Sequence record: OZ346175.1
Strand: one strand, 5' to 3'
From: a phage
Length of the DNA stretch: 64,000 nt
Shown here in pieces: positions 56,646 through 63,556 of this stretch. The position numbers were made by a program, and so were the translations under genes. Within the stretch, counting starts at the first letter, position 1, and every line of letters starts with the position of its first letter. The notes beneath the pieces are model-generated. The model was given only the letters and a program-made list of their open reading frames with translations, made no database searches and was not told where the DNA came from.

Positions 56646-58061
56646 ATGAGCGAGTTATTTAAACATGCGCACCTTCATGCAGGTCGAACTGAAAATGGTG
56701 CTGTAAACCATACTTCATCAATGTCTGCTCTAGTAAACTTTTACAAAGCTGCTGGTTCAAGCCGTAGCAACGTAGAAATCTTACCAGACCTGTTCTACAA
56801 AGCTTTGCGTGAGGATGTTGATGTTGCAGTTCGTATTTTGCTTCATATGCGAGATGTACGAGAAGGTATGGGTGAGCGTAAAGCCTTCAGGACTGTTTTG
56901 CTTCAAGCAATTGAAGACAAAGTTTTAGAGTCTACGCAGGTTCTTCGCATTATGGATAAGATTGCAGAACTTGGTCGTTTTGATGACTTCAAAATCTTCG
57001 TAGGTACTCGTTTCGAGACAGATGCCTTCAAACATTTAGAAGCAGCATTACTAGACCCTGCAACAGAAGGTTTGGCGGCTAAGTGGTTACCACGAGTCAA
57101 ACCACGTCATAAGCAGTTTGTAAAACGTTTCTGCAAGTTTGCCAACTTGAGTGAGAAAGAGTACCGCACACTGTTGTCTGCACTATCTGATACAGTTGAG
57201 CAAAAAATCTCTGCTAATGAGTTTGGTAAGATTGACTACAGTAAGATTCCTTCACTTGCTGCTGCACGTTACCAAAAACTGTTTAACCGTAAAGATGGAG
57301 AGCGTTACAAAGCTTACATCGAGTCCTTATCAAAAGGTGAGACTAAGATTAACGCTGGTGCTGTTTACCCATACGATGTGATTAAATCTGTCAAGTATGG
57401 TAATGCAGATGTTGCTAATGAGCAGTGGAAAGCACTACCAAACTGGATGGCAGAAGGTGAAAACATCTTGTGTATGTCTGATGTATCAAGTTCAATGTCT
57501 TGGGTGAATTTTGGCTCCATTACTGCTCTGGATATTGGTGTATCACTTGCCTTGTATGTAGCAGAACGCAATACAGGTTGCTTTAAGAATGAGTTAATGG
57601 TTTATTCAACAAACCCTCACTTCATCGAACTGAGTGGTGATTTACGAAACCGTCATCGTCAGGTGATGCGACACGTTGAATATGGCTCAACTAACTTACA
57701 AGCAGCTTTTGACCGCATTCTTGAAACAGGTAAAAGAAACAACTTGACTCAGAAAGATATGCCAAGTAAGCTTATCATCTTCTCCGATATGGAGTTCAAT
57801 CAGGTTGATGGAGCTAACGGTCGTACAAACTTTGAAGCAATTCAGAGTAAGTACAAAAAAGCTGGATATGAGATGCCACAACTGGTATTCTGGTACTTAG
57901 CAAACCGTAATGGTACTTGCGAAGTATCTGTTAAGGATAACGGTGTAGCAATGGTATCAGGGTTCTCTCCAGCCACTTTAAAAGCTCTGCTTGGTGGTGA
58001 GAAGTTTGACCCAATCAGTGTAATGCTCAAAGCAGTAATGATTGACCGTTATATCTGGTAA
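56646..58061 (+). CDS. Ro60-like (TROVE + von Willebrand A) protein
   Basis: 471 aa; helical N-terminal region then vWA MIDAS DVSSSM in ILCMSDVSSSMSW, plus IIFSDMEF and C-terminal GFSPATL blocks matching recalled Ro60. Confidence 0.6.
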   Translation: MSELFKHAHLHAGRTENGAVNHTSSMSALVNFYKAAGSSRSNVEILPDLFYKALREDVDVAVRILLHMRDVREGMGERKAFRTVLLQAIEDKVLESTQVLRIMDKIAELGRFDDFKIFVGTRFETDAFKHLEAALLDPATEGLAAKWLPRVKPRHKQFVKRFCKFANLSEKEYRTLLSALSDTVEQKISANEFGKIDYSKIPSLAAARYQKLFNRKDGERYKAYIESLSKGETKINAGAVYPYDVIKSVKYGNADVANEQWKALPNWMAEGENILCMSDVSSSMSWVNFGSITALDIGVSLALYVAERNTGCFKNELMVYSTNPHFIELSGDLRNRHRQVMRHVEYGSTNLQAAFDRILETGKRNNLTQKDMPSKLIIFSDMEFNQVDGANGRTNFEAIQSKYKKAGYEMPQLVFWYLANRNGTCEVSVKDNGVAMVSGFSPATLKALLGGEKFDPISVMLKAVMIDRYIW

Positions 58062-58079: not shown

Positions 58080-58108
58080 TTGACAATGTGTTTAATACCC
58101 TTTAATAT
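58080..58108 (+). promoter_or_regulatory. sigma70-type promoter upstream of tRNA cluster
   Basis: TTGACA-N17-TAATAT; -35 sits inside inverted repeat aagggtatt...aataccctt. Confidence 0.5.
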
Positions 58109-58227: not shown

Positions 58228-58304
58228 CTCTGTTTAGCTCAGCTTGGTAGAGCGTTCCGTTTGGGGCGGTAAGGCCGGAGGTTCAAGTCCTCCAACAGAG
58301 ACCA
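58228..58304 (+). tRNA. tRNA-Pro (anticodon TGG)
   Basis: Hand cloverleaf: acceptor ctctgtt/aacagag, anticodon loop ttTGGgg, T-arm ggagg-ttcaagt-cctcc, CCA encoded. Confidence 0.7.
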
Positions 58305-58311
58305 AATTAAT

Positions 58312-58389
58312 GTTCCAGTAGACAAAATGGTAAAGTCACCACTCTTTCAAAGTGGATATCTGAGGGTTCAAATCCCTTCTGGAACGCCA
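58312..58389 (+). tRNA. tRNA-Glu (anticodon TTC)
   Basis: Acceptor gttccag/ctggaac, anticodon stem ccact/agtgg, loop ctTTCaa, T-loop ttcaaat, CCA encoded. Confidence 0.6.
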
Positions 58390-58396
58390 GTTTTGA

Positions 58397-58469
58397 CAGA
58401 AGACCAATTACAGCAAACTTAATCTTATTCATCTGAAGGTAAATCGGACAAAGAAGAGATTTGGTCTGG
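58397..58469 (+). ncRNA. structured element A (cagaagacc...ggtctgg stem family)
   Basis: 5' cagaagaccaattacagcaa and 3' tggtctgg; stem agacca/tggtct; family member without tRNA-like module. Confidence 0.35.
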
Positions 58470-58480
58470 TCATTAAGAAT

Positions 58481-58557
58481 TGCGGGTATAGAGAAAGGGC
58501 GTCTCACATGTCTCATTAGCATGGTATCGGCAGGTTCGACTCCTGCACCCGCCTCCA
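58481..58557 (+). tRNA. tRNA-Met or Ile2 (anticodon CAT), non-canonical acceptor
   Basis: D-stem gaga/tctc, anticodon stem catgt/gcatg, loop ctCATta, T-arm gcagg-ttcgact-cctgc; acceptor pairing needs one mismatch. Confidence 0.5.
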
Positions 58558-58563
58558 AATTTG

Positions 58564-58624
58564 CAGAAGACCGTATTCAGCAACAAAATACTTTTTTGCG
58601 GATAAAAGAAAAAACACGGTCTGG
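58564..58624 (+). ncRNA. structured element B (cagaagacc...ggtctgg stem family)
   Basis: cagaagaccgtattcagcaa ... cggtctgg; stem agaccg/cggtct (compensatory relative to A). Confidence 0.35.
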
Positions 58625-58635
58625 CAATGTATTAA

Positions 58636-58712
58636 GGTTAGGAAGCACATAAGGTATGTGCGGTCGCCTGTTAAGCGAATGGCACAGGGTTCGAATCCCT
58701 GACTAACCGCCA
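58636..58712 (+). tRNA. tRNA-Asn (anticodon GTT)
   Basis: D-stem gcac/gtgc, anticodon loop ctGTTaa, T-arm caggg-ttcgaat-ccctg, CCA encoded; position 8 is A (atypical). Confidence 0.55.
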
Positions 58713-58720
58713 AATTAAAT

Positions 58721-58808
58721 GTGTCGTTATCCCGTAGATGGTAGCGGTGGGGACTGTAAATCCCTTGTCATTGAGACTCGGTAGGTTCGACTCCTACACG
58801 GCACACCA
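58721..58808 (+). tRNA. tRNA-Tyr (anticodon GTA)
   Basis: 88 nt with long variable arm; anticodon stem gggga/tccct, loop ctGTAaa; T-arm gtagg-ttcgact-cctac; CCA encoded. Confidence 0.7.
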
Positions 58809-58813
58809 ATAAA

Positions 58814-58890
58814 GGCTATGTAGTTTAACTGGAGAAAATACTCCCCTGTCACGGGAGATGATGTGAGTTCAAGTCTCATCGTAGCCGCCA
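58814..58890 (+). tRNA. tRNA-Asp (anticodon GTC)
   Basis: Acceptor ggctatg/cgtagcc, anticodon stem ctccc/gggag, loop ctGTCac, T-loop ttcaagt, CCA encoded. Confidence 0.75.
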
Positions 58891-58951
58891 ATTTTGAGAG
58901 GGCTATTTAGCCCCTCCCTTAAAGAGTTCTTACGAGTATTCTTTAAGGGAG

Positions 58952-59035
58952 CAGAAGACCAAATACAGCAAGAATGTATGAAATTTCAAGCCAATTTAAT
59001 TTTGAAAATTTAAAACTTGGTCTGGCTCAACAAAT
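58952..59035 (+). ncRNA. structured element C (cagaagacc...ggtctgg stem family)
   Basis: cagaagaccaaatacagcaa ... ttggtctgg; stem agaccaa/ttggtct. Confidence 0.35.
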
Positions 59036-59038
59036 TTA

Positions 59039-59170
59039 CAGAAGACCGTTTACAGCAAAACTTAAACAATCTATTTCTCCGGTAAAGAAAAGGCGAAGGT
59101 TCGATTCCTTCACTCGGCAGATGTCGAGTTGGTGTAATGGTAGCACTTAAGATGATAAACAACGGTCTGG
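59039..59170 (+). ncRNA. Y-RNA-like element D with circularly permuted tRNA-like module
   Basis: 8-bp closing stem agaccgtt/aacggtct; internally T-arm gaagg-ttcgatt-ccttc, acceptor-like stem actcggc-agat-gtcgagt closed by a loop, then D-arm gtg-taatggtag-cac. Confidence 0.5.
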
Positions 59171-59171
59171 T

Positions 59172-59315
59172 AATTATCTTTGTAGATAAGTTATTAAGCT
59201 TACCTGTGAGTATGCGACCACAAAGGGTGAAAGGGTAAATTCTAGATTTAAACCCAACAAGGCACATCGCTACAGACCTTAAGCAAGTCTGGGTAGCTTA
59301 TCTACAAAGATAATT
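59172..59315 (+). ncRNA. structured element closed by 19-bp perfect inverted repeat
   Basis: aattatctttgtagataag (59172-59190) exactly complementary to cttatctacaaagataatt (59297-59315); internal cagacc...gtctgg hairpin. Confidence 0.4.
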
Positions 59316-59319
59316 TAAT

Positions 59320-59395
59320 GGAAGTGTAGCAGAATGGTGATGCGGCAGACTTTTAATCTGACAGGCGATGGGTTCGAATCCCTCCACTTCTACCA
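59320..59395 (+). tRNA. tRNA-Lys (anticodon TTT)
   Basis: Acceptor ggaagtg/cacttct, anticodon loop ctTTTaa, T-loop ttcgaat (T-stem needs a bulge), CCA encoded. Confidence 0.55.
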
Positions 59396-59399
59396 ATAT

Positions 59400-59476
59400 G
59401 GTTCAGTCGCAGATAAGGTAATGCAAGGGTCTCATAAGCCCTATGAATGTTGGTTCGATTCCCATCTGAACCTCCA
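59400..59476 (+). tRNA. tRNA-Met (anticodon CAT)
   Basis: Acceptor ggttcag/ctgaacc, anticodon stem agggt/gccct, loop ctCATaa, T-loop ttcgatt, CCA encoded. Confidence 0.6.
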
Positions 59477-59477
59477 A

Positions 59478-59553
59478 GCTGGTATAGTTAAGAAGGTTAT
59501 AACACTCCCCTGATAAGGGAACATCGGTGGTTCGATTCCACCTACCAGTACCA
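59478..59553 (+). tRNA. tRNA-Ile (anticodon GAT)
   Basis: Acceptor gctggta/taccagt, D-stem gtta/taac, anticodon loop ctGATaa, T-arm ggtgg-ttcgatt-ccacc, CCA encoded. Confidence 0.75.
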
Positions 59554-59568
59554 ATTTCAATAAAGTTG

Positions 59569-59597
59569 TTGACATTGAGATGTGACTACTTTATAGT
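59569..59597 (+). promoter_or_regulatory. sigma70-type promoter internal to tRNA cluster
   Basis: TTGACA-N17-TATAGT. Confidence 0.5.
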
Positions 59598-59798
59598 AAC
59601 CTTAGTTTTCGTTGCGTAGCGTCTATTTTGCAAATTTAAAATAAATGCAAACGACAATGTTTTTCTGGCAGTAGCTTGATAGGCTAAACACCAGTGAGGT
59701 CTTCCAATCCCTCATCAAAGAATTTGGCGTACTCGCCCACGGTATGATTAATAAGGTGGGCATCTTTAAGGGCTTTCTAAGAGAGTCTTTAAAGATAA

Positions 59799-59876
59799 TG
59801 CACCCTTAGTTCAATTGGATAGAGCAACGGTCTTCTAAATCGTTAGTTACAGGTTCGAATCCTGTAGGGTGTACCA
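59799..59876 (+). tRNA. tRNA-Arg (anticodon TCT)
   Basis: Acceptor gcaccct/agggtgt, D-arm gttc-aattggata-gagc, anticodon stem acggt/atcgt, loop ctTCTaa, T-arm acagg-ttcgaat-cctgt, CCA encoded. Confidence 0.75.
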
Positions 59877-60018
59877 AATAGTTAGCAGATTACTTAGACG
59901 GCCTTAGCGGGTCTTCCTGTAGGGAGGTGGTCTGTATCTCATGTTTTCCAGAACATGTAAATAATCTGAGAAGAAGCTTGACAGTGTTGAGATAACAGGG
60001 TAAGCTTCGAATTATAAT

Positions 60019-60101
60019 ATGGGACGATGTTAAGACTCTAAGGCATGAGCAACGGCCTCCAAAACCGTTTCAAAGGGGTTCAACTCCTCCGTCCCATGCC
60101 A
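60019..60101 (+). tRNA. tRNA-like gene, probable Trp (anticodon CCA), atypical D region
   Basis: Acceptor atgggac/gtcccat, anticodon loop ctCCAaa, T-loop ttcaact, CCA encoded; D region about 7 nt longer than canonical. Confidence 0.45.
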
Positions 60102-60114
60102 AAGTCTTATTAGG

Positions 60115-60202
60115 GGTAGGTAGCGGCTAATGGCAGCCAAACAGTCTTGAAAACTGTTGCCACTGTAGAGATACGGTGAGGGTTCGACTCCTTTACTTAC
60201 CG
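60115..60202 (+). tRNA. tRNA-Ser (anticodon TGA)
   Basis: 88 nt with long variable arm; anticodon stem acagt/actgt, loop ctTGAaa; T-arm gaggg-ttcgact-ccttt; CCA not encoded. Confidence 0.7.
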
Positions 60203-60458
60203 CCTAATAAGATTTACTCCGTCCATGCTTGTTCGCATTGTCGGTTTATCCCTCGTGTATTGTCGTACACTGTCAAAGCACCTAGTAGGTGTCACGGAGA
60301 AGAGATAATATCAAGCTCTCCAAAGGTTCTAGTCACCGGATTAAACAAGACTATGCAAAGACCTATTTAGGTCTTTTTAGAGGGCTTCTAAGGTTATTAG
60401 TCGCTTGTTGTGGAACCTTGTTGCTCAGGTTCTTAGAAGTTCTCTAAAAAGATTTAAT

Positions 60459-60536
60459 GGGAGATTGACGGTAATTGGTAAACCTACCATCCTTAGAAGT
60501 TGGTGTTTGAGGGTTCGAATCCCTTGTCTCCTACCA
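60459..60536 (+). tRNA. tRNA with apparent anticodon TAG (Leu-type) on short-variable-arm scaffold
   Basis: Acceptor gggagat/gtctcct, anticodon loop ctTAGaa, T-arm gaggg-ttcgaat-ccctt, A73, CCA encoded; no long variable arm. Confidence 0.45.
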
Positions 60537-60543
60537 AATTAAT

Positions 60544-60619
60544 GCAGGTGTAGCAAAATGGTTATGCGGCTGACTCTTAATCAGTAAGACGATGGGTTCA
60601 ATTCCCTCCACCTGTACCA
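60544..60619 (+). tRNA. tRNA-Lys (anticodon CTT)
   Basis: Paralog of 59320..59395; acceptor gcaggtg/cacctgt, anticodon stem gctga/tcagt, loop ctCTTaa, T-loop ttcaatt, CCA encoded. Confidence 0.6.
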
Positions 60620-60625
60620 GACATC

Positions 60626-60702
60626 GGGGTCATAGTTTATATGGTTAAAATTCGAGTTTTGCAAACTTGGGAACTGAGTTCAATTCTCAGTGACTCCACC
60701 AA
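60626..60702 (+). tRNA. tRNA-Ala (anticodon TGC)
   Basis: Acceptor ggggtca/tgactcc, anticodon stem cgagt/acttg, loop ttTGCaa, T-arm ctgag-ttcaatt-ctcag, CCA encoded. Confidence 0.7.
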
Positions 60703-60708
60703 TTAGTG

Positions 60709-60781
60709 CATCCATAGTTTAAACGGGAAAATTACAGTCTTCCAAACTGAGGTTGAGGGTTCGATTCCCTCTGGATGCTCC
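60709..60781 (+). tRNA. tRNA-Gly (anticodon TCC)
   Basis: Acceptor gcatcca/tggatgc, anticodon loop ctTCCaa, T-arm gaggg-ttcgatt-ccctc. Confidence 0.65.
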
Positions 60782-60796
60782 AAATTAAGGTGTGAT

Positions 60797-61210
60797 ATGA
60801 AAATATGCAGTACTTGCAGAATACCAAAAGATGAAAGCTTATTCCATAAGAATAAGAACAAGAAAGATGGTCTTCAAAGTCAATGCAAAGACTGTGCAAG
60901 ACTTCGTGATGCAAAGAGTTATCAAGCAAATGATAAAAGGAAAGAGGCTATTAAAAGCACTCGTAACTTCAAGAGAGAGTATAACAAGACTCTAGCTAGA
61001 AGGTACAAAGCTTTATGCAAATGTCATATATGTGGTGAGAAAGAACCAGTTGCATTGGATTTACACCATACAGACCCTTCCCAGAAAGATTTGAATCCTG
61101 CATCACTTTATTCATACTCCACAAAAAGATTAAAAGATGAAATCAGAAAGTGCATTGTCTTGTGCGCTAACTGTCACAGAAAAGTACATGCTGGTATCAT
61201 AAAAGTTTAA
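60797..61210 (+). CDS. HNH endonuclease inside tRNA cluster
   Basis: 137 aa; zinc-binding Cys pairs and HNH motif (LDLHHTDP...CANCHRKVH); flanked by tRNA genes. Confidence 0.75.
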   Translation: MKICSTCRIPKDESLFHKNKNKKDGLQSQCKDCARLRDAKSYQANDKRKEAIKSTRNFKREYNKTLARRYKALCKCHICGEKEPVALDLHHTDPSQKDLNPASLYSYSTKRLKDEIRKCIVLCANCHRKVHAGIIKV

Positions 61211-61211
61211 T

Positions 61212-61288
61212 GCTGCTTTCGTATAATTGGCTATTACACATCCCTTGTAAGGATGGAAATGCAGGTTCAAGTCCTGTGAGCAGCACCA
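61212..61288 (+). tRNA. tRNA-Thr (anticodon TGT)
   Basis: Acceptor gctgctt/gagcagc, anticodon stem catcc/ggatg, loop ctTGTaa, T-arm gcagg-ttcaagt-cctgt, CCA encoded. Confidence 0.75.
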
Positions 61289-61292
61289 ATTC

Positions 61293-61379
61293 AGAGGTCA
61301 AGTGAAAGACCGCTTTGAGTCAACTGAAGACCGTAACAAATCCCACGGAGTTGAGTTAGCGGCACAACTCCAGACCTCT
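61293..61379 (+). ncRNA. structured element E between tRNA genes
   Basis: Closing stem agaggtc/gacctct; internal hairpin ggagttg-agttagcggca-caactcc; two gaagacc motifs. Confidence 0.35.
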
Positions 61380-61384
61380 TTCAT

Positions 61385-61459
61385 ACTCGCTTAGTTTATA
61401 TGGTAAAACATCACCCTTACAAGATGAAGAAAAAGGTTCAAGTCCTTTAGTGAGTACCA
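61385..61459 (+). tRNA. tRNA-Val (anticodon TAC)
   Basis: Acceptor actcgct/agtgagt, D-stem gttt/aaac, anticodon loop ctTACaa, T-arm aaagg-ttcaagt-ccttt, CCA encoded. Confidence 0.7.
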
Positions 61460-61460
61460 T

Positions 61461-61538
61461 GTTCCAGTATCCCAATTGGCAGAGGATGCAAGCTCAAACC
61501 TTGTATTAGTGACGGTTCGAATCCGTCTTGGAACACCA
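61461..61538 (+). tRNA. tRNA with apparent anticodon CAA (Leu-type) on short-variable-arm scaffold
   Basis: Acceptor gttccag/ttggaac, anticodon stem gcaag/cttgt, loop ctCAAac, T-arm gacgg-ttcgaat-ccgtc, A73, CCA encoded. Confidence 0.45.
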
Positions 61539-61543
61539 ATTTT

Positions 61544-61619
61544 GCAGGATTAGTTCAAATGGATAGAGCAACAGTCTACGAAGCTGTTAATAGGGGTTCG
61601 AATCCCTTATCCTGCGCCA
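61544..61619 (+). tRNA. tRNA-Arg (anticodon ACG)
   Basis: Acceptor gcaggat/atcctgc, D-arm gttc-aaatggata-gagc, anticodon stem acagt/gctgt, loop ctACGaa, T-loop ttcgaat, CCA encoded. Confidence 0.75.
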
Positions 61620-61638
61620 ATTTAAAGAGGCTATTTAG

Positions 61639-62196
61639 ATGAGATATTTGAAGTATGCTTCATGGATTTTTTTAGCTTTGTTAGAGCCATTTGCAGCAAT
61701 CTTAGCAGTTATCTTAGCACCTTTTGTAGTTCCATTCTACAGTGAGAAGAAAGGACACTTACCTTTCGGGTTCAGATGGATGGAGACATATGACAACCCA
61801 ATTGATGGTGATGAAGGTCACGTTAAAAGATGGGCTAATATTAGATGGATTGGTAAACTAGGTGTCTACATGCAAAGAGTCGGATGGCTCTGGAGAAACA
61901 AAGCTTATAACTTCTCTTACCATGTATTAGGAAGAGATGTAAGAGATGTTACTAAGTGGAAAGGTAATATCAACGTAAGTTCTGACCCCGAAGATAATCA
62001 GACAGGTTATCTCCTAATGTGGAACAGTAATGCTTGGGGATTATTCGCTTTTATCCCATCAATTAAAATCTTTGGTAAACAATTTTACTGGAGAATTTAT
62101 ATTGGATGGAAACTAAAAAGTGTTGTCCCAGAAGAAAGAGCATTCTCAAGGGAAAGAGTTATGTTGGCATTCTTTATTCATCCACTGAGAAAGTAA
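61639..62196 (+). CDS. hypothetical membrane protein
   Basis: 185 aa; hydrophobic N-terminus (WIFLALLEPFAAILAVILAPFVVPF), Trp-rich; embedded in tRNA cluster. Confidence 0.5.
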   Translation: MRYLKYASWIFLALLEPFAAILAVILAPFVVPFYSEKKGHLPFGFRWMETYDNPIDGDEGHVKRWANIRWIGKLGVYMQRVGWLWRNKAYNFSYHVLGRDVRDVTKWKGNINVSSDPEDNQTGYLLMWNSNAWGLFAFIPSIKIFGKQFYWRIYIGWKLKSVVPEERAFSRERVMLAFFIHPLRK

Positions 62197-62204
62197 AGAT
62201 TTAA

Positions 62205-62280
62205 AGGGGATTAGTTTACAAGGTTAAAACCTCGGTCTTTGAAATCGAAGAAGTTGGTTCAATTCCAACATCCCCCGCCA
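62205..62280 (+). tRNA. tRNA-Gln (anticodon TTG)
   Basis: Acceptor aggggat/atccccc with unpaired 1:72, anticodon stem tcggt/atcga, loop ctTTGaa, T-arm gttgg-ttcaatt-ccaac, CCA encoded. Confidence 0.65.
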
Positions 62281-62282
62281 AT

Positions 62283-62361
62283 GCTCCATTACTCCAATTG
62301 GCAGAGAGGCCAGACTTAAAATCTGTGTTATGTATCGGTTCGAATCCGATATGGAGTACCA
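62283..62361 (+). tRNA. tRNA with apparent anticodon TAA (Leu-type) on short-variable-arm scaffold
   Basis: Acceptor gctccat/atggagt, anticodon loop ctTAAaa, T-arm atcgg-ttcgaat-ccgat, A73, CCA encoded; variable region 7 nt. Confidence 0.45.
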
Positions 62362-62366
62362 AATTT

Positions 62367-62442
62367 AGCGGTATAGCATAACTGGCAATGCAGCAGCCTC
62401 TGAAGCTGTCCTATTAAGGTTCAAATCCTTATGCCGCTGCCA
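62367..62442 (+). tRNA. tRNA-Gln (anticodon CTG)
   Basis: Acceptor agcggta/tgccgct, D-stem gcat/atgc, anticodon stem gcagc/gctgt, loop ctCTGaa, T-arm taagg-ttcaaat-cctta, CCA encoded. Confidence 0.65.
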
Positions 62443-62473
62443 CTTCTAAGGATTCTTGCGAGAGTCCTTAAAT

Positions 62474-62549
62474 GTGGCCTTATCATAAACGGTAATGACC
62501 CATGCTGTGAACATGGTCTATACGGGTTCAAATCCCGTAGGTCACCCCA
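62474..62549 (+). tRNA. tRNA-His (anticodon GTG)
   Basis: Acceptor gtggcct/aggtcac, D-stem tcat/atga, anticodon stem ccatg/catgg, loop ctGTGaa, T-arm acggg-ttcaaat-cccgt, CCA encoded. Confidence 0.75.
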
Positions 62550-62554
62550 ATTTA

Positions 62555-62631
62555 TAGTCCAAGTAGCTTATATGGTTAAAGCGCGTGTCTGAAAAACATG
62601 AGAAGAGGGTTCAAATCCCACTGGACTACCA
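62555..62631 (+). tRNA. tRNA-Phe (anticodon GAA)
   Basis: Acceptor tagtcca/tggacta, D-stem gctt/aagc, anticodon stem cgtgt/acatg, loop ctGAAaa, T-loop ttcaaat; 3' end register ambiguous. Confidence 0.55.
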
Positions 62632-62647
62632 ATTTCAAAGGTGCTTA

Positions 62648-63382
62648 ATGAAAGAGATGACAGAACAAGGTAAGGAGATTTTTAATCTCTTAAAAACTGG
62701 TAAAGGGTTCTCTAACCCGCTTATTACTGGTGCAGCAGTTCTCGGTGGAACCGTAGCTGCTTCTACATCACTTGTAAGCTCTATTAGTTCTGTAACAGAC
62801 CCTACAATGAAAGAGAAACTTGTTGCTGCTGGACTTACAACAGTCCTTCTAAACAGCTTTACAACAAGCCTTACAAGCACTACAGCAACTACTAAAACTC
62901 TGACAGACTACGGTCAAAAATCTATTGATGAGTTTTCATCACGTATGCAGGTAGCAAAGGGGTATTCCAATGTTATGGGTGCAGCAGGAGAACAAGTTGG
63001 TTGTACACCATTCAGTGGTATCATGGGTGTTGCTACAGAGTATGGTCAAAAAGCTATTGACATGATGAACAGTACACTAGATAGTGTTAATGGTGTGTTA
63101 AGTGACTTACAAGATGCTATTGATAAGGGTCTTGATACTGTTTCTGATTTAGCTAACCAAGCTGTCAGTAAGATTAATGAAGGTATTTCAAAGATTACAG
63201 CTTATGCAGATGAAGTTGTGCAGATGATTGAAGAAGAAGCTGCCCCTATTGCAGAGTACCTTAAAACGAATATCAATGGGTTCTTAGCAGGTATCTTACC
63301 AGACTGGTTTGACGATGCTTGTAAAACTGGTGTGATTGACACTATTGCAACACCAGAAATGAAGAGCGCATTACAGAAATAA
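62648..63382 (+). CDS. hypothetical Ser/Thr-rich protein
   Basis: ORF 62585..63382 trimmed to MKEMTEQ to clear tRNA-Phe; Ser/Thr-rich low-complexity N-terminal half. Confidence 0.45.
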   Translation: MKEMTEQGKEIFNLLKTGKGFSNPLITGAAVLGGTVAASTSLVSSISSVTDPTMKEKLVAAGLTTVLLNSFTTSLTSTTATTKTLTDYGQKSIDEFSSRMQVAKGYSNVMGAAGEQVGCTPFSGIMGVATEYGQKAIDMMNSTLDSVNGVLSDLQDAIDKGLDTVSDLANQAVSKINEGISKITAYADEVVQMIEEEAAPIAEYLKTNINGFLAGILPDWFDDACKTGVIDTIATPEMKSALQK

Positions 63383-63383
63383 T

Positions 63384-63476
63384 GGAAGATTAACCCTAAA
63401 AGGTAAGGGAGCAGTTTGCTAAACTGCCAGTAGCTGAGAAATCGGTGTACCAGTTCAAGTCTGGTATCTTCCTCCA
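63384..63476 (+). tRNA. tRNA-Ser (anticodon GCT)
   Basis: 93 nt with 21-nt variable arm; acceptor ggaagat/atcttcc, D-stem ccc/ggg, anticodon stem gcagt/actgc, loop ttGCTaa, T-arm accag-ttcaagt-ctggt, CCA encoded. Confidence 0.75.
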
Positions 63477-63480
63477 ATTT

Positions 63481-63556
63481 GAATCCGTGACAGAAATGGA
63501 TATGTACCTGTCTGCAAAACAGGTTTATAAGGGTTCGAGTCCCTTCGGATTCTCCA
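63481..63556 (+). tRNA. tRNA-Cys (anticodon GCA)
   Basis: Acceptor gaatccg/cggattc, anticodon stem cctgt/acagg, loop ctGCAaa, T-loop ttcgagt, CCA encoded. Confidence 0.75.

Follow-up and report, generated by a model that had tools for sequence, protein, structure and literature searches.

Three tRNA-Leu genes that lack the long variable arm lie in the tRNA cluster of a Felixounavirus genome. They probably encode functional, phage-encoded short-armed ("type I") leucine tRNAs, which would be charged by the host synthetase (LeuRS) and serve AT-rich Leu codons. The window, meaning the whole 64-kb stretch of DNA analysed, is 96-98% identical to Felix O1 relatives. The short-armed trio is a real feature that is rarely discussed, and it is not new, being already annotated in Felix O1-type phages. 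The Felix O1 genome paper (PMC3185647) had already listed the genes, so this analysis adds no new element.

Structure and setting of the three genes

The original prediction had parsed three tRNAs by hand, with the Leu-type anticodons TAG, CAA and TAA. ARAGORN returned the same positions and the same anticodons (Table 1), and its cloverleaves match the hand parses in length (78-79 nt), in A73 and in variable regions of 5-7 nt. The programs assigned the same anticodons and Leu identity throughout. ARAGORN, the Rfam search (family RF00005, gathering score 29) and covariation all describe the three as canonical elongator tRNAs, whose cloverleaf includes a 5-bp anticodon stem and a T arm that follows GTTCRANYC.

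Table 1. Coordinates of the tRNA-Leu genes, their cluster and neighbouring features in the window.
Feature	Position	Strand	Description	Basis
Promoter-like site, sigma-70 type	58080..58108	+	TTGACA-17-TAATAT; directly upstream of cluster	consensus scan, pattern match only
tRNA cluster	58228..63556	+	26 genes including three Leu; gene order same in Felix O1 annotation	ARAGORN
tRNA-Tyr	58721-58808		88 nt, long arm	ARAGORN
Second promoter-like site	59569-59597		near-consensus	consensus scan, pattern match only
tRNA-Ser	60115-60204		90 nt, long arm	ARAGORN
tRNA-Leu(UAG)	60459..60536	+	78 nt with encoded CCA	ARAGORN; Rfam tRNA 40.0 bits
tRNA-Leu(CAA)	61461..61538	+	78 nt with encoded CCA	ARAGORN; Rfam tRNA 44.0 bits
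tRNA-Leu(UAA)	62283..62361	+	79 nt with encoded CCA	ARAGORN; Rfam tRNA 47.5 bits
tRNA-Ser	63384-63476		93 nt, long arm	ARAGORN

In the ARAGORN cloverleaves, each tRNA-Leu has a 7-bp acceptor stem, A73, the encoded CCA, a 3-bp D stem, a D-loop of the form A14 A15 U U G18 G19 N A and a 7-nt anticodon loop with U33. The T arm is of the form GGTTCGAATCC in all three. The D arm is UCC-CAAUUGGCAGA-GGA in the CAA species and CUC-CAAUUGGCAGA-GAG in the UAA species. The anticodon loops read CUUAGAA (UAG species), CUCAAAC (CAA species) and CUUAAAA (UAA species), and the variable regions are 5 nt (UGUUU), 6 nt (AUUAGU) and 6-7 nt, respectively. None of the three has a variable arm that exceeds about 10 nt and folds into a stem-loop, the mark of long-armed (class II, or type II) tRNAs. 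Each combines a Leu anticodon and A73 with a variable region of 4-7 nt, as is characteristic of short-armed (type I) tRNA-Leu. Minor irregularities are present in two of them. In tRNA-Leu(UAG) these are a G1-U72 pair, a U-U mismatch within the anticodon stem and an additional nucleotide separating the acceptor stem from the D stem; in tRNA-Leu(UAA) the uppermost position of the anticodon stem is a C-U mismatch (or a 1-nt bulge).

Two explanations had been offered for these parses: either the loop registers were wrong, or the phage carries unusual Leu decoders. Mis-registered anticodon loops were ruled out, as ARAGORN, Rfam and covariation agree on the registers. Since the registers are right and covariation backs a short-armed cloverleaf, the second explanation holds, with one correction. 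The tRNAs are short-armed, but only by the standard of the enterobacterial host are they unusual; short-armed genes occur widely in other phages and on the chromosomes of actinobacteria. For that reason, the premise that bacterial tRNA-Leu is normally class II does not hold as a universal rule (PMC6614811).

All 26 tRNAs of the window fall within the cluster, which spans 19 amino acids with no Trp called. The cluster had been said to lack a class II tRNA-Leu, and ARAGORN found no long-armed tRNA-Leu elsewhere in the 64-kb window either. Two promoter-like sites are consistent with transcription by the host RNA polymerase, as PMC3185647 assumes. A homologue of a Ro60-like protein is encoded just upstream, and its Ro60 fold was confirmed.

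Conservation and relatives

The short cloverleaf is strongly supported by an alignment of 29 distinct short tRNA-Leu, the three window genes included. Pairing was seen in 97.8% of cells, whereas shuffles reached 59.6% and slid controls no more than 48.6%. Both sides had changed at 18 of the 20 pairs, and such compensatory substitutions were found in all four stems. G1, U8, G18, G19, A20a, U33, A35 and A73 are invariant across the alignment, and A15, U48 and A37 are nearly so. The three genes are under strong constraint: 216 phage records contain tRNA-Leu(UAA) at 99% identity or more, and the tRNA-Leu(UAG) alleles of VpaE1, Wc4 and ASO1B differ by a compensatory exchange of the entire anticodon stem. 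An identical copy of tRNA-Leu(CAA) is present at an IMG/VR locus (L099), and the UAG/CAA/UAA anticodon set is kept across unrelated phages.

These data bear on whether the genes are decaying pseudogenes or software artefacts. Their Rfam scores (40-47.5 bits) are the lowest in the cluster, and GenBank labels some tRNA-Leu(UAG) alleles tRNA-OTHER or pseudo. However, near-identity over hundreds of genomes and compensatory substitutions in every stem argue against pseudogenes, and two independent programs, ARAGORN and the Rfam search, agree on the calls. We find decay or artefact scarcely credible.

Genes 9, 15 and 18 of Felix O1 (Leu-TAG, Leu-CAA and Leu-TAA; PMC3185647) are the same genes in the same order and of the same lengths (78, 78 and 79 nt). 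Identity is 100% for the UAA gene and 96.6% over the whole region, with no difference of substance. The Felix O1 paper (Whichard et al. 2010) lists the three Leu genes and leaves the missing arm unremarked; the word "variable" is absent from it and from the paper on phage Sf14 (PMC12482277). No explicit account of short-armed phage tRNA-Leu was found in the literature searched, and the T5 and BF23 papers of the 1980s-90s may hold an earlier description.

Hundreds of phage genomes carry annotations of the same tRNA-Leu genes, and short-armed tRNA-Leu also occurs in BF23 and most T5-like phages, in Seunavirus and in a Yersinia phage. The tRNA-Leu1(UAG) of BF23 and most T5-like phages (NC_042564.1, 77 nt) is about 84% identical to the window UAG species and shares its 5-nt variable region, D-loop type, U-U mismatch, CUUAGAA loop, T arm and A73. 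It differs in belonging to Demerecviridae, in a compensatorily changed acceptor stem and in a regular D stem without the extra nucleotide. T5 tRNA-Leu1(UAG) (NC_005859, 85 nt) has the same anticodon and genomic slot as the short BF23 gene, and a suppressor note as well, but it keeps the long arm, unlike BF23 and the window UAG species. Because T5 tRNA-Leu1 is long-armed, both arm designs exist in phage tRNA-Leu, even within one genus.

IMG/VR and GTDB were scanned with patterns seeded with one D-loop and T-loop pattern, so the fractions are indicative and not a census: among the IMG/VR matches listed, short arms were seen in 25 of 155 Leu, 0 of 27 Ser and 1 of 16 Tyr tRNAs. Phage tRNA-Leu length is bimodal among these listed matches, with the window genes in the short mode. 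At every locus examined, Leu alone was short, and Ser and Tyr were long.

The E. coli genes leuW (UAG), leuX (CAA) and leuZ (UAA) resemble the phage genes in their anticodons, A73, 3-bp D stem, U48 and 11-nt D-loop (NAAUYGGYAGA). They differ in length (85-87 nt), in their 13-15-nt variable arm, in U32 and, for the UAG species, in G37. Identity between the two sets is 59-77%, and the phage UAG gene had no blastn match in 5,426 complete E. coli genomes. Among the GTDB matches listed, short chromosomal tRNA-Leu(UAA) genes were found in Mycobacterium, Nocardia, Gordonia and Arthrobacter. Actinobacterial type I tRNA-Leu is about 75-76% identical to the phage genes and, like the window CAA and UAA species, has a short variable region, A73 and the CCAAUUGGCAGAGG D arm. 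It is a cellular tRNA served by actinobacterial LeuRS, whereas the phage tRNAs must suit the enterobacterial enzyme. Pairwise identity to host, T5, BF23 and actinobacterial tRNA-Leu (59-82%) fits a recent arm deletion and an old lineage alike.

Leucine identity and probable charging

E. coli LeuRS needs neither the anticodon nor the long arm, and arm-less variants stay active; its determinants are A73, U8-A14, A15-U48, the Leu-type position of G18G19 and A20a (PMC9976931). All of these are present in the three window genes, and UAG, CAA and UAA are Leu anticodons (NAG or YAA). Judged by sequence, the nucleotides conserved in the alignment correspond precisely to the leucine identity set of E. 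coli, and the long arm lies outside it. For near-identical genes of the closely related phage Sf14, tRNAscan-SE isotype models placed Leu first, with scores of 67.4, 49.1 and 60.2 (PMC12482277). Animal mitochondrial tRNA-Leu(UUR) and an engineered arm-less minimal E. coli tRNA-Leu are leucylated through A73, A14 and the tertiary core (PMC9976931). The former is organellar with its own LeuRS and the latter is artificial; enterobacterial LeuRS has neither as a natural substrate.

Two other assignments were rejected. The anticodons (5'->3') pair with the sense codons CUA, UUG and UUA, and the tRNAs are not nonsense suppressors, which would carry CUA, UUA or UCA. A different amino-acid identity is opposed by the identity rules (PMC9976931), as there is no G3-U70 (Ala), no long arm (Ser) and no anticodon fitting the anticodon-reading synthetases, and it is also disfavoured by the Sf14 isotype scores.

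We infer that the host LeuRS leucylates the three tRNAs. A 2019 paper describes E. coli LeuRS as charging long-armed tRNA-Leu only, and there the enzyme could not leucylate a short-armed tRNA-Leu(CAA) of Streptomyces coelicolor (PMC6614811). According to its GenBank note, the BF23 homologue became an effective amber suppressor in E. coli when its anticodon was replaced by CUA; the note does not state the inserted amino acid. It follows that this homologue is charged and that E. coli ribosomes use it.

The failed charging of a heterologous short-armed tRNA-Leu could also suggest that the three are not translational Leu adaptors, and are instead charged with a different amino acid or act as tRNA-like RNAs, for example as partners of the Ro60-like protein encoded upstream. 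According to a speculation in a preprint on the related phage Bas63, some of the genes annotated as tRNAs beside its Ro60-like gp130 may be Y RNAs, and the Ro60 fold of the window homologue is in keeping with this. We regard such a role as very improbable. The canonical tRNA features are all intact (7-nt anticodon loop, U33, invariant A35 and encoded CCA), better Y RNA candidates were found elsewhere in the cluster, and the identity rules set out above stand against another amino acid. The suppressor function of the BF23 homologue and the anticodon set common to unrelated phages also argue against a non-adaptor role.

Under the favoured reading, as charged Leu adaptors, the three tRNAs would share host-type promoters with the other genes of the cluster, and host enzymes would carry out their maturation, the CCA being already encoded. 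Host LeuRS would then add leucine, reading A73 and the shape of the elbow and core, namely U8-A14, the A15-U48 Levitt pair, the placement of G18G19, A20a and the 3-bp D stem. Seryl-tRNA synthetase (SerRS) uses the long arm for recognition, and bacterial tyrosyl-tRNA synthetase (TyrRS) makes contact with it. Phage tRNA-Ser and tRNA-Tyr would keep the arm because of these contacts, and tRNA-Leu could lose it because it is dispensable for LeuRS.

Codon usage, possible counter-defence and significance

The UAA species would decode UUA and UUG, the CAA species UUG and the UAG species CUA (plus wobble partners). In 65 ORFs of the window, the Leu codons include TTA at 24%, CTT at 26.5%, CTA at 12% and CTG at 15%. 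The phage, at 39% G+C, uses AT-rich Leu codons far more than its host does; from this heavier use, the three tRNAs may be expected to supplement or protect Leu decoding in late infection. The phage presumably benefits from them. In the Bas63 preprint, the tRNA genes of that phage were for the most part dispensable for growth on four laboratory strains of E. coli, so any benefit would be conditional.

Arm loss could also be a matter of counter-defence. Together with altered anticodon loops, it might hide the Leu decoders from host or prophage effectors that target long-armed tRNAs or the tRNA-Leu of the host, and Leu decoding would survive the destruction or blocking of host tRNA-Leu. The anticodon loops are indeed unlike the host's, with C32, with A37 in place of G37 in the UAG species and with C38 in the CAA species, and the slot holding either a long (T5) or a short (BF23) tRNA-Leu(UAG) points to selection for cassette exchange. 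Long-armed tRNAs are the preferred substrates of the AbiEii and MenT3 nucleotidyltransferase toxins. The Salmonella Gifsy-1 prophage terminase is reported to fragment tRNA-Leu (PMC11610961), and rescue of infection from tRNA nucleases by phage tRNAs is established for other isoacceptors. Nevertheless, no enterobacterial defence system is known to pick tRNA-Leu by its variable arm, and the same phages keep the arms of tRNA-Ser and tRNA-Tyr. Many Actinomycetota use the same short design as an ordinary chromosomal tRNA-Leu(UAA), where evasion is not needed. We consider concealment of this kind unlikely. It is likewise unlikely that arm loss is a phage strategy yielding tRNAs still charged by LeuRS and unrecognisable to host or prophage anti-phage effectors against long-armed tRNAs or host tRNA-Leu; if it were, the short-armed UAG/CAA/UAA trio that recurs in phages of unrelated lineages would represent a mobile cassette for counter-defence.

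For short-armed tRNAs as Leu adaptors, the under-discussed point is that coliphages and Salmonella phages routinely carry tRNA-Leu of this design, which enterobacterial LeuRS must serve, in contrast to the 2019 description of that enzyme. The question of charging bears on tRNA identity rules, on the design of compact or orthogonal tRNA-Leu scaffolds, and on the annotation pipelines that sometimes mislabel these genes. Within single phage clusters, the loss of the Leu arm and the retention of the Ser and Tyr arms amount to a natural experiment that matches the recognition rules of the synthetases.

Three short-armed tRNA-Leu genes in the cluster

ARAGORN called 26 tRNA genes in the whole window, all on the plus strand at 58228-63556, including three tRNA-Leu genes that also exceed the gathering score of 29 for the Rfam tRNA model. 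The hand parse behind the original prediction was correct in its Leu anticodons, coordinates and missing long arm for these three genes. In the ARAGORN cloverleaves, each has a 7-bp acceptor stem, A73, an encoded CCA, a 3-bp D stem with a D-loop of the form (N)AAUUGG(Y)A(R)A, a 7-nt anticodon loop with U33 and a standard T arm. The variable regions are 5, 6 and 6-7 nt for the UAG, CAA and UAA species, respectively. As comparators, ARAGORN gave 88 nt for tRNA-Tyr and 90 and 93 nt for two tRNA-Ser of the same cluster. The claim that the cluster lacks a class II (long-armed) tRNA-Leu held for the entire 64-kb window, where ARAGORN found none. The short arms are confirmed as an observation, and the reading of the genes as unusual, short-armed Leu decoders is supported.

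Coordinates of the features in the window and in the T5 and BF23 loci
Feature	Sequence	Position	Strand	Details
tRNA-Leu(tag)	window	60459-60536	+	ARAGORN; Rfam tRNA model 40.0 bits
tRNA-Leu(caa)	window	61461-61538	+	ARAGORN; Rfam tRNA model 44.0 bits
tRNA-Leu(taa)	window	62283-62361	+	ARAGORN; Rfam tRNA model 47.5 bits
471-aa ORF	window	56646-58061	+	just upstream of tRNA cluster; Pfam DUF2828 and DUF7788; phrog_850 "RNA-binding protein"
Four repeated spacer units	window	58394-58472, 58562-58628, 58950-59030, 59037-59172	+	in tRNA spacers
Near-consensus promoter	window	59569-59597		TTGACA-17-TATAGT; upstream of 59600-59799 (+)
Tag-like ORF	window	59647-59679	+	GCA AAC GAC ... TGA, encoding ANDNVFLAVA and a stop
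tRNA-like element	window	60019-60100	+	acceptor stem ATGGGAC/GTCCCAT, G73, encoded CCA, T arm
T5 tRNA-Leu(UAG)	L127	9625-9709		85 nt, long-armed
BF23 tRNA-Leu(UAG)	L005	3881-3957		77 nt, short-armed

None of the three genes is new, and the short-armed design is widespread. Over the tRNA region, the window shares 96-98% identity with Felix O1-type phages of the genus Felixounavirus (311 matching phage records; 96.6% identity over 97% of the query for Felix O1 itself), and the RefSeq annotation of Felix O1 lists the three genes in identical order. They also appear in Table 1 of the 2010 Felix O1 genome paper as Leu-TAG, Leu-CAA and Leu-TAA, with equal lengths and Cove scores of 46-58; the absence of the arm is not remarked on there (PMC3185647). 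The window has a second Met, an Arg-TCT, a Ser-TGA and a Ser-GCT tRNA that are absent from the Felix O1 annotation, but it lacks further HNH genes of the Felix O1 cluster. These differences indicate that the cluster is a hotspot of insertion and loss. An ORF at 60808-61210 (+), between tRNA-Gly and tRNA-Thr, is the counterpart of the Felix O1 HNH endonuclease ORF47.

Leucine codons in 65 window ORFs (38.7% G+C) are TTA 24%, TTG 15%, CTT 26.5%, CTC 7%, CTA 12% and CTG 15%. In E. coli, CTG makes up about half and CTA about 4%. Thus, the three tRNAs serve Leu codons that the phage over-uses; the Felix O1 paper had suggested this earlier for TTA (PMC3185647). Pattern matching found sigma-70 promoter-like sites upstream of the cluster. 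On four laboratory strains, the related phage Bas63 could do without most of its tRNA genes; any benefit is therefore conditional.

Constraint and spread of the short-armed design

An alignment of 29 distinct short tRNA-Leu was built from the window's three, BF23, two from a Seunavirus and 23 from IMG/VR. Standard pairs occupy 97.8% of its cells under the standard cloverleaf, compared to 59.6% when shuffled and at most 48.6% with slid partners. Both-sided changes occur at 18 of 20 pairs, and the covariation score is 1.03 (shuffles, 0.26). The UAG gene has at least two alleles in Felixounavirus, 100% and ~90% identical to the window's. Between alleles the entire anticodon stem is exchanged, with pairing preserved by compensatory changes: ACCAUC/GUUGGU in the window, AUCUCG/CGAGAU in VpaE1 and CGCUUC/GUAGCG in Wc4. 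Across 216 phage records, the UAA gene keeps at least 99% identity. If the genes were pseudogenes, or encoded a non-translational RNA, their intact anticodon loops, encoded CCA, conservation and covariation would be unexpected; both readings are contradicted. The short tRNA-Leu are constrained, functional RNAs. Several GenBank records tag the UAG gene as tRNA-OTHER or tRNA-pseudo.

The UAG family extends to 355 phage records, of which 261 fall at 80-90% identity. The latter are mostly T5-like (~84% by blastn with the region), and Seunavirus, Pectobacterium, Cronobacter and Klebsiella phages are also among the matches listed. Seunavirus SPLA5a has tRNA-Leu of 77 and 78 nt alongside tRNA-Ser of 86-94 nt and tRNA-Tyr of 84 nt; Yersinia phage P778 has two tRNA-Leu of 77 nt, tRNA-Ser of 91 and 93 nt and tRNA-Tyr of 83 nt. 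The slot between tRNA-Ser2 and tRNA-Ala holds unrelated tRNA-Leu(UAG) genes in T5 and BF23, so the long and short designs are interchangeable within one genus. The pattern points to replacement of the gene as a cassette, for which homing endonucleases may have been the driver. The HNH endonuclease gene hegC adjoins the slot in T5 and is absent from BF23.

An IMG/VR pattern scan open to both arm lengths gave at least 120 loci, and ARAGORN was run on 120. Among the matches listed, tRNA-Leu lengths are bimodal (n=155), with a core of 73-77 nt in 25 and 79-93 nt in 130, and tRNA-Ser (27/27) and tRNA-Tyr (15/16) are long. Neighbours in these matches that were not selected by the pattern include short tRNA-Leu(UAG) in 10 of 22 cases and short tRNA-Leu(CAA) in 4 of 11, and the short UAG/CAA/UAA trio recurs on several contigs.

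Bacterial genomes (GTDB contigs) were scanned with a short-only pattern. Nearly all matches listed (loci L128-L247) are chromosomal tRNA-Leu(UAA) of Actinomycetota, including Mycobacterium, Nocardia, Gordonia, Rhodococcus and Arthrobacter, with some cyanobacteria and planctomycetes. Their core is ~74-76 nt, and 140 of the 141 tRNA-Leu of any anticodon in these matches are short. The actinobacterial genes share the CCAAUUGGCAGAGG D arm with the window's CAA and UAA genes. This chromosomal spread goes far beyond the one case described from Streptomyces (PMC6614811). The UAG gene had no match in 5,426 complete E. coli genomes; the design is absent from the enterobacterial host. Loss of the arm as a counter-defence is possible, since effectors aimed at tRNA-Leu or preferring long arms exist and the phage anticodon loops are unlike those of host tRNA-Leu. 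However, the same design on actinobacterial chromosomes means that counter-defence is not needed to explain it.

Other RNAs and a Ro60-like protein

The product of the 471-aa ORF is predicted to have a Ro60 fold. Its AF2 model (pLDDT 86.6) has Ro60 2i91 (E 1.8e-8, TMq 0.66), Deinococcus Rsr and Thermus phage Ro60 as top Foldseek PDB matches, and the protein contains the MIDAS motif DVSGSM. The spacer units follow the form N4-AGA-AGACCNNNUNCAGCAA...NNGGUCU-G-N4' (4 matches, 0.07 expected) and are closed by a common helix, in which the outer 4 bp covary from copy to copy. The fourth encloses a tRNA-like module with D arm, T arm and capped acceptor stem, as in bacterial YrlA Y RNAs. This layout recurs in Yersinia phage P778, where compensatory changes turn the inner stem into GGACUG/CAGUCC. 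A 2024 preprint on Bas63 described gp130 as Ro60-like and as a counter to the ppl defence system; its authors also speculated that Y RNAs could be among the annotated tRNAs. The spacer units, which appear to be previously undescribed, look like better candidates.

In Rfam, the segment 59600-59799 (+) gives weak alignments to the mRNA-like part of tmRNA (tmRNA 15.7 and 8.7 bits, permuted tmRNA 29 bits, all below gathering scores). ARAGORN called no tmRNA there, and no tRNA-like domain was found. The E. coli tmRNA tag, for comparison with the tag-like ORF, is ANDENYALAA. The segment may be a tmRNA-derived fragment or mimic. The element at 60019-60100 has a CUCCAAA loop (anticodon CCA, Trp) and an irregular, oversized D region. 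It gets no ARAGORN call, even with thresholds relaxed, and its only Rfam match is tRNA-Sec-like (23 bits). Because the 26 called tRNAs cover every amino acid but Trp, the element may be a non-canonical tRNA-Trp or, alternatively, a tRNA-like RNA.

Leucine identity and charging

G1, U8, G18, G19, A20a, U33, A35 and A73 are invariant in the 29-member alignment, and A15, U48 and A37 nearly so. In E. coli, leucine identity depends crucially on A73 and also requires the A15-U48 pair, G18G19, A20a and the D/T-loop tertiary pairs, but neither the anticodon nor the long variable arm (PMC9976931). The phage genes share the 3-bp D stem and 11-nt D-loop register of E. coli leuW, leuX and leuZ, but lack their 13-15-nt arm. 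Other amino-acid identities were rejected, as the genes have neither G3-U70 nor a long arm; from published identity rules, anticodon-reading synthetases were rejected because none of the three carries a cognate anticodon. In the related phage Sf14, Leu was the best tRNAscan-SE isotype model for all three genes, in a 2025 study that makes no mention of the variable arm (PMC12482277).

The GenBank annotation of the BF23 tRNA region gives tRNAL1 as 77 nt and notes that replacing its anticodon by CUA yields an effective amber suppressor, the inserted amino acid not being stated. On this basis, a short-armed tRNA-Leu of the UAG family is charged in E. coli and serves its ribosomes. The E. coli leucyl-tRNA synthetase (LeuRS) could not leucylate the short-armed S. 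coelicolor tRNA-Leu(CAA) and has been portrayed as charging long-armed tRNA-Leu only (PMC6614811). However, that tRNA is heterologous to the enzyme, whereas the phage tRNAs bear the E. coli determinant set, and the BF23 gene is active in E. coli. The predicted leucylation of the phage short-armed tRNA-Leu by an E. coli-type LeuRS is the one experimentally interesting point.
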